Shown one piece after another: positions 7,561 through 10,286 of a stretch of DNA of 64,000 bases. Location: assembly GCF_988242995.1 (NCBI RefSeq), contig NZ_OZ547043.1; one strand, written 5' to 3'. The first letter of the stretch is position 1, and each line of letters begins with the position of its first letter. A program made the position numbers and the translations under genes. The notes beneath the pieces are model-generated. The model searched no databases and was not told the DNA's origin. It was given only the letters and a program-made list of their open reading frames with translations.

Positions 7561-8847
7561 ATGAAACTCTACAATCTGAAAGATCACAATGAGCAGGTCA
7601 GCTTTGCGCAAGCCGTAACCCAGGGGTTGGGCAAAAATCAGGGGCTGTTTTTTCCGCACGACCTGCCGGAATTCAGCCTGACTGAAATTGATGAGATGCT
7701 GAAGCTGGATTTTGTCACCCGCAGTGCGAAGATCCTCTCGGCGTTTATTGGTGATGAAATCCCGCAGGAAATCCTGGAAGAACGCGTGCGCGCGGCGTTT
7801 GCCTTCCCGGCTCCGGTCGCCAATGTTGAAAGCGATGTCGGTTGTCTGGAATTGTTCCACGGGCCAACGCTGGCATTTAAAGATTTCGGCGGTCGCTTTA
7901 TGGCACAAATGCTGACCCATATTGCGGGCGATAAGCCAGTGACCATTCTGACCGCGACCTCCGGTGATACCGGAGCGGCAGTGGCTCATGCTTTCTACGG
8001 TTTACCGAATGTGAAAGTGGTTATCCTCTATCCACGAGGCAAAATCAGTCCACTGCAAGAAAAACTGTTCTGTACATTGGGCGGCAATATCGAAACTGTT
8101 GCCATCGACGGCGATTTCGATGCCTGTCAGGCGCTGGTGAAGCAGGCGTTTGATGATGAAGAGCTGAAAGTGGCGCTGGGGTTAAACTCAGCTAACTCGA
8201 TTAACATCAGCCGTTTGCTGGCGCAGATTTGCTACTACTTTGAAGCAGTTGCGCAGCTGCCGCAGGAAGCGCGCAACCAGCTGGTTGTCTCGGTGCCAAG
8301 CGGAAACTTCGGCGATTTGACGGCGGGTCTGCTGGCGAAGTCACTCGGTCTGCCGGTGAAACGTTTTATTGCTGCGACCAACGTGAACGATACCGTGCCA
8401 CGTTTCCTGCATGACGGTCAGTGGTCACCCAAAGCGACTCAGGCGACGTTATCCAACGCGATGGACGTGAGTCAGCCGAACAACTGGCCGCGTGTGGAAG
8501 AGTTGTTCCGCCGCAAAATCTGGCAACTGAAAGAGCTGGGTTATGCAGCCGTGGATGATGAAACCACGCAACAGACAATGCGTGAGTTAAAAGAACTGGG
8601 CTACACTTCGGAGCCGCACGCTGCCGTAGCGTATCGTGCGCTGCGTGACCAGTTGAATCCAGGCGAATATGGCTTGTTCCTCGGCACCGCGCATCCGGCG
8701 AAATTTAAAGAGAGCGTGGAAGCGATTCTCGGTGAAACGTTGGATCTGCCAAAAGAGCTGGCAGAACGTGCCGATTTACCCTTGCTTTCGCATAATCTGC
8801 CCGCCGATTTTGCTGCGTTGCGTAAATTGATGATGAATCATCAGTAA
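7561..8847 (+). CDS. thrC: Threonine synthase
   Basis: 428-aa ORF MKLYNLKDHNEQVSFAQAVTQGLGKNQGLFFP... abutting the thrB stop. Confidence 0.95.
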   Translation: MKLYNLKDHNEQVSFAQAVTQGLGKNQGLFFPHDLPEFSLTEIDEMLKLDFVTRSAKILSAFIGDEIPQEILEERVRAAFAFPAPVANVESDVGCLELFHGPTLAFKDFGGRFMAQMLTHIAGDKPVTILTATSGDTGAAVAHAFYGLPNVKVVILYPRGKISPLQEKLFCTLGGNIETVAIDGDFDACQALVKQAFDDEELKVALGLNSANSINISRLLAQICYYFEAVAQLPQEARNQLVVSVPSGNFGDLTAGLLAKSLGLPVKRFIAATNVNDTVPRFLHDGQWSPKATQATLSNAMDVSQPNNWPRVEELFRRKIWQLKELGYAAVDDETTQQTMRELKELGYTSEPHAAVAYRALRDQLNPGEYGLFLGTAHPAKFKESVEAILGETLDLPKELAERADLPLLSHNLPADFAALRKLMMNHQ

Positions 8848-8868
8848 CATCTATTCATTATCTCAATC

Positions 8869-8904
8869 AGGCCGGGTTTGCTTTTATGCAGCCCGGCTTT
8901 TTTG
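8869..8904 (+). terminator. Probable rho-independent terminator of the thr operon
   Basis: GCCGGG...CCCGGC stem followed by TTTTTTGT, 20 bp after the thrC stop. Confidence 0.6.
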
Positions 8905-9060
8905 TGAAGAAAATATGGAGAGAAACGACAGGGAAAAAGGAGAAATTCTCAATAAATGCGGTAACTTAGAGATTAGGATTGCGGAGAATAACAACCGCCG
9001 TTCTCATCGCGTAATCTCCGGATATCGACCCATAACGGGCAATGATAAAAGGAGTAACCT

Positions 9061-9357
9061 GTGAAAAAGATGCAATCTATCGTACTCGCACTTTCCCTGG
9101 TTCTGGTCGCTCCCATGGCAACGCAGGCTGCGGAAATTACGTTAGTCCCGTCAGTAAAATTACAGATAGGCGATCGTGATAATCGTGGCTATTACTGGGA
9201 TGGCGGTCACTGGCGCGACCACGGCTGGTGGAAACAACATTATGAATGGCGAGGCAATCGCTGGCACCCACACGGACCGCCGCCACCGCCGCGTCACCAT
9301 AAGAAAGCTCATCATGATCATCACGGCGGTCATGGTCCAGGCAAACATCACCGCTAA
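9061..9357 (+). CDS. yaaX: Small secreted His/Pro-rich protein YaaX (DUF2502)
   Basis: 98-aa ORF with a GTG start, signal-peptide-like N-terminus ([23 protein letters not shown]) and low-complexity tail [30 protein letters not shown]. Confidence 0.7.
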
Positions 9358-9390
9358 ATGACAAATGCCGGGTAACAATCCGGCATTCAG

Positions 9391-9497
9391 CGCCTGATGC
9401 GACGCTGGCGCGTCTTATCAGGCCTACGTGAATTCTGCAATATATTGAATCTGCATGCTTTTGTAGGCCGGATAAGGCGTTCACGCCGCATCCGGCA
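9391..9497. repeat. BIME: two inverted REP palindromic units
   Basis: CGCCTGATGCGACGCTGGCGCGTCTTATCAGGCCTAC and the inverted GTAGGCCGGATAAGGCGTTCACGCCGCATCCGGCA match the E. coli REP/PU consensus. Confidence 0.7.
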
Positions 9498-9509
9498 TTG
9501 ACTACAAAC

Positions 9510-10286
9510 TTAACGCTGCTCGTAGCGTTTAAACACCAGTTCGCCATTGCTGGAGGAAGCTTCATCAAAGAAGTAACCTTCGCTATTAAAACCAGTCAGT
9601 TGCTCTGGTTTGGTCAGCCGATTTTCAATAATGAAACGACTCATCAGACCGCGTGCTTTCTTAGCGTAGAAGCTGATTATCTTAAATTTGCCGTTCTTCT
9701 CATCGAGGAACACCGGCTTGATAATCTCGGCATTCAATTTCTTCGGCTTCACCGATTTAAAATACTCATCTGACGCCAGATTAATCACCACATTATCGCC
9801 TTGTGCTGCGAGCGCCTCGTTCAGCTTGTTGGTGATGATATCTCCCCAGAATTGATACAGATCTTTCCCTCGGGCATTCTCAAGACGGATCCCCATTTCC
9901 AGACGATAAGGCTGCATTAAATCGAGCGGGCGCAGTACGCCATACAAGCCGGAAAGCATTCGCAAATGCTGTTGGGCAAAATCGAAATCGTCTTCGCTGA
10001 AGGTTTCGGCCTGCAAGCCGGTGTAGACATCACCTTTAAACGCCAGAATCGCCTGGCGGGCATTCTCCGGCGTGAAATCTGGCTGCCAGTCATGAAAGCG
10101 AGCGGCGTTGATACCTGCCAGTTTGTCGCTGATACGCATCAGCGTGCTAATCTGCGGAGGCGTCAGTTTCCGCGCTTCATGGATCAACTGCTGGGAATTG
10201 TCTAACAGCTCCGGCAGTGTATATCGCGTGGTGGTCAACGGGCTTTGGTAATCAAGCGTTTTCGCAGGTGAAATAAGAATCAGCAT
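9510..10286 (-). CDS. yaaA: Peroxide stress protein YaaA (DUF328/UPF0246)
   Basis: 258-aa [32 protein letters not shown]...; conserved position. Confidence 0.9.

Follow-up and report, generated by a model that had tools for sequence, protein, structure and literature searches.

Several small exported proteins are the closest described counterparts of the product of yaaX. ZraP, a member of the Spy/CpxP family, works as a stress-induced, zinc-binding chaperone in the periplasm; it is small and exported, is associated with envelope stress, and binds metal through His-rich ends. Asr is an acid-shock protein of the E. coli periplasm; it carries a signal peptide, and its sequence is basic, disordered and enriched in both His and Lys. 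Ivy and MliC are lysozyme inhibitors under Rcs control. The Enterobacteriaceae also have a second DUF2502 protein, YpeC (b2390), which shares with YaaX the signal peptide, the core (..YEWR.NRW) and a terminal His cluster (GHGHGHHH). yaaX itself, fifth in the gene map of E. coli K-12, has stayed an unexplained “y-gene” for decades. Both the gene and its Pfam family, PF10697, were already catalogued with no function assigned, as the original prediction correctly said; the locus is thus a known gene and represents no new kind of system.

The window, that is, the whole stretch of 64,000 nucleotides that was analysed, contains the thr region in the order thrB (to 7560), thrC (7561–8847), yaaX, yaaA (9510–10286, − strand) and yaaJ. 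The features of the yaaX locus are listed in Table 1. The gene corresponds to b0005 of E. coli, and RefSeq genomes of E. coli with 100%-identical DNA label it “yaaX: DUF2502 domain-containing protein”. Pfam DUF2502 (PF10697) matches residues 25–96 of the protein with E = 6.7e-14 and 52.3 bits, the curated gathering cut-off being 27 bits. The gene name and the family given by the original prediction agree with both sources, and the two peptide strings that it quoted are found in the reading frame at exactly the positions reported. yaaX lies between thrC and the convergent yaaA, an order kept in ~65 Enterobacteriaceae species and also found in Enterobacter, and this location distinguishes the yaaX orthogroup from ypeC, which lies between an aldo-keto reductase gene and mntH. 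In a 27-genus alignment the GTG start of yaaX shares its column with the ATG start of the orthologs. All of the features tested were found, and YaaX is a member of the DUF2502 family and of the yaaX orthogroup.

Table 1. Features of the yaaX locus, in window coordinates.
Feature	Position	Strand	Remarks
thr operon intrinsic terminator	8869–8903	+	GC-rich hairpin followed by a U6 run
Conserved upstream block	8944–8995	+	AATTCTCAATAAATGCGG at 8944–8961 and CTTAGAGATTAGGATTGCGGAGAATAACAAC at 8965–8995; near-invariant in 27 genera
Putative −10 hexamer, TAATCT	9012–9017	+	Inside the conserved GTAATCTC; 18 nt downstream of ATAACA
Shine-Dalgarno sequence, AAGGAG	9049–9054	+	Read from the sequence; 6 nt before GTG; kept in orthologs
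yaaX coding sequence	9061–9357	+	From the ORF list; GTG start, 98 codons plus stop, 98 amino acids
Sec-type signal peptide, residues 1–23	9061–9129	+	From the reading of n-, h- and c-regions; predicted cleavage between TQA and AE
DUF2502 core, residues 24–71 (48 residues)	9130–9273	+	Trp/Arg/Asp-rich mini-domain, predicted folded
His-rich tail, residues 72–98 (~27 residues)	9274–9354	+	Predicted disordered, pLDDT 45–66 (AlphaFold2)
PPPPP run, codons 73–77 (CCG CCG CCA CCG CCG)	9277–9291	+	Read from the sequence; marks the core–tail boundary
Hairpin directly after the stop codon, TGCCGGGTA-ACAA-TCCGGCA	9365–9386	+	No U-run
BIME with two REP hairpins (9392–9423 and 9467–9496)	9392–9496		Inverted repeats between the convergent yaaX and yaaA

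The family is small: 1.84 billion proteins include 107 of its cluster representatives, and 100,044 species genomes contain 282 loci. It is centred on the Enterobacterales, the order having the Rcs system; outliers are rare, Jeongeupia and a gammaproteobacterial MAG being examples. The gene contexts of seven family members revealed no conserved operon partner, the genes being monocistronic throughout. One distant homolog adjoins an ECF sigma/anti-sigma pair and BufA1/MbnB genes. In addition, one Pantoea DUF2502 entry in UniRef is named “Zinc ABC transporter substrate-binding protein”, which is probably an annotation artefact transferred through the His-rich stretch.

Published transcriptomes place yaaX, ypeC and a Serratia homolog in the Rcs envelope-stress (Rcs/sigma-S) regulon rather than in a metal regulon. 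Expression of yaaX increases 1.9-fold under RcsB overexpression from pZE21-rcsB (PMC2731931), goes up by log2 4.1 upon exposure to colicin M, where the authors grouped it with Rcs genes (PMC3599342), and rises 8- to 12-fold with a LolCDE inhibitor, in a data set that annotates it as “RpoS stress induced” (PMC5105897). A Serratia DUF2502 gene is up-regulated in a gumB mutant with over-active Rcs, and its promoter was cloned as an Rcs reporter (PMC8470065). The paralog ypeC is down 23.7-fold in an O157:H7 isolate with disrupted rcsB (PMC5343319); it is also a target of MarA/SoxS, and its promoter carries a marbox reported for MarA. After 4 weeks in cold soil, one DUF2502 gene ranked among those with the strongest induction. 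Regarding metals, silver-adaptive cusS mutants showed differential expression of yaaX along with zraP and the cus operon, in a list that does not give the direction of the change (PMC10920338), and beyond this list no link to Zur, ZraR, CusR, NikR or RcnR was found. The metal-related hints, namely the co-expression with zraP and cus, the position of ypeC next to mntH and the BufA1/MbnB neighbours of the distant homolog, are scattered and weak.

The thr operon terminator folds as RNA with −24 kcal/mol (z = −4.5), a stability reached by none of 200 shuffled sequences. It cuts yaaX off from the transcription of thrC, and the gene therefore needs a promoter of its own. The 150 bp between this terminator and the yaaX start are unusually conserved across 27 Enterobacteriaceae genera. 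The near-invariant upstream block, probably an activator site judging from its conservation, includes TTAGGA (8973–8978) and the −35-like ATAACA (8988–8993), and a variable spacer of 18 nt separates CTTAGAGATTAGGATTGCGGAGAATAACAAC from GTAATCTC, the conserved segment that holds the putative −10 hexamer. A stringent sigma-70 consensus scan called no promoter on the + strand and no terminator, so the promoter proposed here derives entirely from phylogenetic footprinting. In the ypeC promoters, TTAGGAGTT is found exactly 39 nt before a TAATAT −10 element, and the same 39 nt separate TTAGGA (8973) from TAATCT in yaaX.

The published RcsB homodimer box, TN(G/A)GAN4TC(T/C)NA (PMC7913699), was sought between positions 8848 and 9060, and no match with at most one mismatch was found. 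The only part of the box present is TAGGA, in the conserved block, which fits an RcsB half-site. A direct RcsB target would be expected to carry the box, and in this one respect the yaaX sequence does not resemble one. As the box is absent from the yaaX promoter, Rcs control of the gene may be indirect, or it may operate via a heterodimer or a non-canonical site. In the last case, TTAGGATTGCGGAG would be the candidate non-canonical site, if it is directly protected by RcsB.

Downstream of the gene, the hairpin that follows the stop codon folds with −15.8 kcal/mol (z = −2.6, a weak signal) and may form the 3′ end of the yaaX transcript or stabilise it. The Rfam scan of positions 8700–9700 found REP-derived families downstream of the gene only, with nothing in the 5′ UTR; the families naRNA4 and ES036 match in the BIME. 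The flanks of yaaX match a median of 39 places per genome, versus 1 for the coding sequence alone.

The signal peptide was recognised from sequence features. Its n-region, MKKMQ, has a charge of +2 and is followed by an h-region of 14 hydrophobic residues, where the Kyte-Doolittle 11-residue window peaks at 3.19 (residues 7–17), the values elsewhere in YaaX being at most 1.3. The c-region, ATQA, has Ala at −1 and Thr at −3. In all of the 72 homologs compared, P18 and A23 are unchanged, residues 3–19 are modelled as a helix by AlphaFold2, and all distant DUF2502 homologs likewise begin with a signal-like sequence. There is no Cys in YaaX and hence no lipobox. The hydrophobic stretch, the predicted cleavage site after ATQA, the lack of Cys and the conservation together support a soluble protein of the periplasm over a lipoprotein. 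The signal peptide of the original prediction is thus recognisable in all three of its regions.

In the core that follows, 17 of the 48 columns do not vary over 31 diverse sequences, and a further 12 reach at least 90% conservation; the D/G/R pattern IGDRDxxGxYWDGGxWRD belongs to these columns, as does each of the five structural tryptophans. The core motif found after the signal peptide, IGDRDxxGxYWDGxxWRDxxWW, is present in YaaX, which holds all of the invariant positions (E25, L28, P30, L34, I36, G37, D40, G43, W46, D47, G48, W51, R52, W57, Y61 and W68). Trp is in excess in the mature protein (6/75, binomial P = 1e-3). Compared with 67 species-level orthologs, the core has a median dN of 0.118, with dS saturated in 51 of the 67 comparisons and a median dN/dS of 0.066 where it was computable. 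The YaaX core is under strong purifying selection (dN/dS ~0.07).

The AlphaFold2 model, built from a 72-sequence alignment, has a pLDDT of 86–94 over residues 31–72 and contains isolated β bridges, a helix at residues 54–60 and a hairpin formed by residues 61–64 and 67–70. The core is therein predicted to be a compact mini-domain held by the invariant tryptophans. A PDB sequence-profile search with YaaX returned no relative (best E = 2.2). More distant DUF2502 members contain two tandem copies of GxRDxxGxYWDGxxWRxxxWW, and in a two-unit Serratia homolog the core pattern is modelled twice (pLDDT 75–88). The conservation, the model and the tandem copies in relatives argue that the Trp-rich motifs form a folded, repeat-type mini-domain. 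The Trp-rich motifs to which the original prediction had drawn attention are therefore present, but they are no loose aromatic patch: they are the invariant and confidently predicted folded core of the family. Two other readings of this region were considered and rejected. D38-x-D40-x-x-G43 might be taken for an EF-hand-like loop, but the canonical loop positions 5 and 12 are unconserved; YWDGGHW might be taken for a WXXGXW repeat, but the family motif is W-D-G-x-x-W, and Pfam has no such match.

Using E. coli proteome background frequencies (2.3% for His), the His excess in mature YaaX is pronounced (14/75, binomial P = 1.5e-9), as it is in the stretch 71–98 (10/28, P = 3e-10). With these 10 His and the penta-proline run at residues 73–77, the His/Pro-rich tail of the original prediction is confirmed, although the proline run is a minority feature of the family, PPP being present in 15 of 89 homolog tails. 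A proline-related ribosome pause in yaaX was detected by both iNP and Ribo-seq (PMC13410324), which makes the PPPPP run a documented pause site. Tail sequences cannot be aligned between genera, and their length goes from ~20 to 45 residues. His nevertheless makes up 15–46% of every one of 89 intact homolog tails, whose overall composition is H 30%, D 20%, R 14%, G 11% and P 9%. Among 67 orthologs, one per species, the median is 9 His in 29 tail residues. Tandem Repeats Finder detected no DNA tandem repeat underlying the tail in the yaaX coding sequence. Among the homolog tails there is no fixed metal motif and no alignable His/Asp spacing, despite the conserved density of His, at 29–30%, and of Asp, at 20–21%, and the terminal HH. 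Judging from these comparisons, the tail is selected for composition only, that is, for His density, usually together with Asp. Since this density is kept, a ligand or proton-titration role is favoured and a conserved cationic, membrane-active role is disfavoured. Together, His and Asp form the classic combination of ligands of Zn, Ni and Cu. A functional His cluster, binding metal or protons, is plausible, so that the metal binding suggested by the original prediction is a reasonable candidate reading.

The alternative offered by the original prediction, a cationic membrane-interacting peptide, fails at the level of the family. Over 67 species, the median net charge of the tail (K+R minus D+E) is −2 and the values run from −7 to +4, so that a positive charge is not conserved across homologs. 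The E. coli tail, with a charge of +4 and one acidic residue, is the extreme, reached by only 4 loci. Furthermore, no amphipathic helix or hydrophobic face was found in this tail, which is predicted to be disordered and whose only hydrophobic residue is one Ala.

These data establish, or strongly support, that yaaX is a real, strongly constrained and separately transcribed gene that is induced by envelope damage, as several independent transcriptome studies indicate, and that its product combines a Sec-type signal peptide with a core predicted to fold and a His-rich tail predicted to be disordered. Our preferred reading of its function is tentative, with chances somewhat short of even: YaaX would be a periplasmic envelope-stress protein whose core docks on a partner while the His/Asp tail binds divalent metals or protons. 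The core would be the specificity module, docking on an envelope component. The tail, free in sequence but kept His-rich (~30%), usually with ~20% Asp and a terminal HH, would be a flexible multidentate ligand cluster for the low-specificity binding of Zn, Ni and Cu, and it would titrate protons near pH 6, changing its charge. YaaX might thus provide the periplasm of cells with a damaged envelope with metal- or pH-dependent buffering, switching or sensing. In Escherichia, to which it is specific, the PPPPP linker would slow translation between core and tail, in which case the synthesis of the protein should depend on EF-P. We would sooner expect metal binding by YaaX in vitro than its absence. 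That the protein has a physiological part in metal homeostasis is far less certain, as the regulators known so far (Rcs and sigma-S, and MarA/SoxS for ypeC) are not metal sensors. In vitro binding alone would be insufficient to establish such a role, as IMAC resin retains any His-rich peptide.

The function could also be imagined without metals. The Trp/Arg/Asp core may bind carbohydrate or phosphate (peptidoglycan, LPS core or colanic acid), with the His tail acting as a pH-switchable polycation on anionic envelope polymers, and the protein would then be a polymer-binding protectant, which we consider unlikely. The co-regulation of yaaX with the Rcs envelope-protection genes ivy, osmB, ymgD, spy and wca agrees with it, and so does the composition of the core, its invariant Trp, Tyr, Asp and Arg being typical of sugar-binding surfaces. 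The computed charge of the E. coli tail, which goes from ~+4.5 at pH 7 to ~+10.8 at pH 5.5, also suits a switchable polycation, but here E. coli is the outlier, the family tails being near neutral or acidic at pH 7 (median −2).

A low probability is likewise given to the core being the whole function, for instance as an inhibitor or decoy for a periplasmic enzyme of exogenous or endogenous origin, for which the Rcs-regulated lysozyme inhibitors are a precedent; the tail would then be a tolerated low-complexity appendage that drifts by slippage and indels. The contrast between a near-invariant core and a tail that is unalignable and variable in length is in line with this possibility, and variation within E. 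coli points the same way. There are two yaaX allele classes, with identical promoter, signal peptide and core, which diverge sharply right after the proline run, where a 21-residue stretch in one class faces RHNKHNDHRGDHRPEPDKHHR in the other. Between the classes, pN is 0.37 and pS 0.73 in codons 79–98, versus a pN of 0.017 and a pS of 0.056 in codons 1–78. The divergence extends downstream of the gene, the second class being without the BIME, and has the appearance of an old boundary within yaaX, of recombination or of polymorphism. Many database entries are, in addition, frameshifted in the tail, and these frameshifts, together with the large variation within E. coli, fit weak constraint on this region. 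Distant homologs have tails that are Gly-, Gln- or Pro-rich, or that end in CPPGQAKKGxC. Drift would, however, be expected to lose the tail composition, which disfavours an appendage of this kind: the His density is kept in every intact yaaX-type tail, both E. coli allele classes are His-rich with a C-terminal KHHR, and at least one His is found among the last four residues in 66 of 67 species-level orthologs, as well as a terminal His in the paralog YpeC. The placement of His and Asp is also non-random, D–H pairs at i,i+2 being enriched (z = +10) and H–H pairs depleted (z = −11), which suggests degenerate xHDD-like periods.

Improbable, in our opinion, is a disordered periplasmic holdase comparable to Asr or HdeA/B, in which the His tail, charged upon acidification, would keep damaged envelope proteins soluble. 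It would account for a tail that is predicted to be disordered and has a strongly pH-dependent charge, and yaaX is stress-induced, with ypeC slightly up, 1.3-fold, on rapid acid treatment (PMC2270276). No acid induction of yaaX itself was found in published data, however, Pfam and NCBIfam reveal no homology to Asr, HdeA/B, Spy or CpxP, and the strict conservation of the predicted folded core would be left unexplained. A more speculative extension of the folded-core idea, to which we give little chance of being correct, is that the DUF2502 core represents an undescribed Trp-clamped mini-fold, an autonomous unit of ~25–30 residues duplicated in some lineages, which would recognise an envelope target or an envelope-attacking foreign enzyme, with the His/Asp tail as a metal or pH switch. 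The Rcs-controlled inhibitors Ivy and MliC would be the model for the recognition of a foreign enzyme, and YaaX and YpeC would in that case count among the missing Rcs effectors. Finally, the idea that yaaX is not a functional gene but an ORF arisen by chance, or a remnant in decay, between thrC and yaaA may draw on the very small size of the protein and on the frameshifted database variants, but it is effectively refuted by the conservation data, namely a dN/dS of ~0.07 with saturated synonymous sites, the retained gene order, promoter and Shine-Dalgarno sequence and a single-copy coding sequence in 5424 of 5426 complete E. coli genomes, along with a regulated transcript and reported ribosome footprints.

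yaaX and ypeC are among the more strongly induced genes upon damage to the cell wall or to lipoprotein trafficking. A function for YaaX, such as the docking core and ligand-binding tail that we prefer, would fill a gap on the effector side of Rcs, a system that affects tolerance to antibiotics and antimicrobial peptides. The new points are modest: the conservation of the tail in composition only, the family-wide failure of the cationic-peptide idea, a core with no PDB relative, and a conserved promoter block that has no canonical RcsB box and shares its spacing with ypeC.

Pfam and NCBIfam show no homology of YaaX to any characterised metal-binding, chaperone or antimicrobial-peptide family, and the similarities to the systems described above are of other kinds. 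ZraP and YaaX have no sequence relationship. Pfam finds no LTXXQ/Spy-type domain in YaaX, and the NCBIfam scan, which has no DUF2502 model, gave sub-threshold matches on the signal peptide only (Spy, E = 0.36). The YaaX core is predicted to be β-rich, whereas ZraP is a helical hairpin, and we know of no ZraSR control of yaaX. Asr resembles YaaX in its size and its signal peptide, and in E. coli the YaaX tail contains a stretch, HHKKAHH, that is similar to it. Asr is, however, not homologous, has a different regulation and lacks a counterpart of the conserved, predicted folded core, and the tails of the DUF2502 family are rich in His and Asp and not basic. The ZnuA loop, the tails of SlyD and HypB, Hpn and the GHHPH repeats of histidine-rich glycoprotein are, like the YaaX tail, disordered and 30–40% His, often with Asp or Gly; the analogy is compositional only, as YaaX has neither homology to them nor a metal-linked gene context. 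Ivy, MliC, OsmB, YmgD, Bdm and Spy respond together with yaaX, being induced when RcsB is overexpressed and when the cell wall or lipoprotein trafficking is damaged. They are, as YaaX is predicted to be, small and exported, and they are likewise confined to enterobacteria, but their sequences and folds are unrelated to it, and lysozyme inhibition is a defined activity known for Ivy and MliC and not known for YaaX. ZraP, Asr, Ivy/MliC and the His-rich metal tails are thus analogies only. YpeC differs from YaaX in its tail, which is rich in Gly, Arg and Trp and has a conserved middle part, HDNGWHRGWDKRxAYERGYREGWRDRDDHRG, as well as in its locus and in the marbox and MarA/SoxS control of its gene; like YaaX, it is Rcs-dependent.

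Outside Escherichia, only a few genera share the run of consecutive proline codons found in yaaX. According to a review (PMC13410324), ribosomes show a proline-related pause on this gene in both peptidyl-tRNA profiling and Ribo-seq data; synthesis of the YaaX tail is therefore probably EF-P dependent. Many deposited yaaX variants contain a frameshift in or just past the proline tract, after which the protein continues in the +1 frame (P0009, P0010, P0012, P0015, P0017, P0019 and P0021), one cluster of these variants comprising 141 member sequences. They may be sequencing errors or real tail-less alleles.

Within E. coli, yaaX is found as two allele classes, one with at least 95% identity to the window coding sequence (4036 genomes) and the other with 90–95% (1388 genomes). 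The two are the same up to the poly-proline run and diverge strongly over the final ~20 codons (pN 0.37, pS 0.73), as seen by comparing window positions 9292-9420 with the loci L006 and L007. The second class is also devoid of the downstream BIME; together with the divergence after the proline run, this points to a boundary within the gene left by old recombination or polymorphism. In Rfam, the BIME is hit by naRNA4 and ES036, two families derived from REP elements, and the flanks give a median of 39 matches per E. coli genome. The thr operon terminator was not called by a simple terminator scan; the length of its stem and loop may be the reason.

Features of yaaX, its surroundings and the comparison loci
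Feature	Coordinates	Description
thr operon terminator	8869-8903	strong hairpin, then U6; -24 kcal/mol, z = -4.5
Conserved blocks upstream of yaaX	8944-8961; 8965-8995	followed by conserved GTAATCTC; cross-genus conservation
Proline codons of yaaX	9277-9291	five consecutive, CCGCCGCCACCGCCG
BIME	9392-9496	REP hairpins at 9392-9423 and 9467-9496; between convergent yaaX and yaaA
Neighbourhood with a weak metal link, L004	2537-4375	Gammaproteobacteria MAG
Neighbourhood with a weak metal link, L089	4001-5936	Rouxiella-like

In some DUF2502 proteins (P0138, P0144, P0100 and P0105) the His cluster is replaced by a C-terminal, Cys-containing (F/H)CPPGQAKKGxC motif. P0100 and P0105 join this tail to an N-terminal core of the E. 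coli type, a combination that could have arisen by recombination or chimeric assembly.

Regarding the gene neighbourhoods, a distant DUF2502 gene is the last of three consecutive uncharacterised genes, of which one is weakly BamE-like and another has a weak lipoprotein-signal match. Their neighbours are genes for an ECF sigma factor with its anti-sigma factor and for BufA1/MbnB, a set taken to be a bufferin-type cluster. Positional orthologs of ypeC, the yaaX paralog, face the Mn/Fe transporter gene mntH in convergent orientation. Each of these two metal ties of DUF2502 is a single case, and they are weak.

The region upstream of yaaX (8944-9017) is near-invariant among 27 Enterobacteriaceae genera. 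A search of positions 8848-9060, allowing at most one mismatch, found no canonical RcsB box. The TTAGGA element (8973-8978) lies 39 nt upstream of the putative -10 of yaaX, and the ypeC promoters contain TTAGGAGTT at this same spacing.
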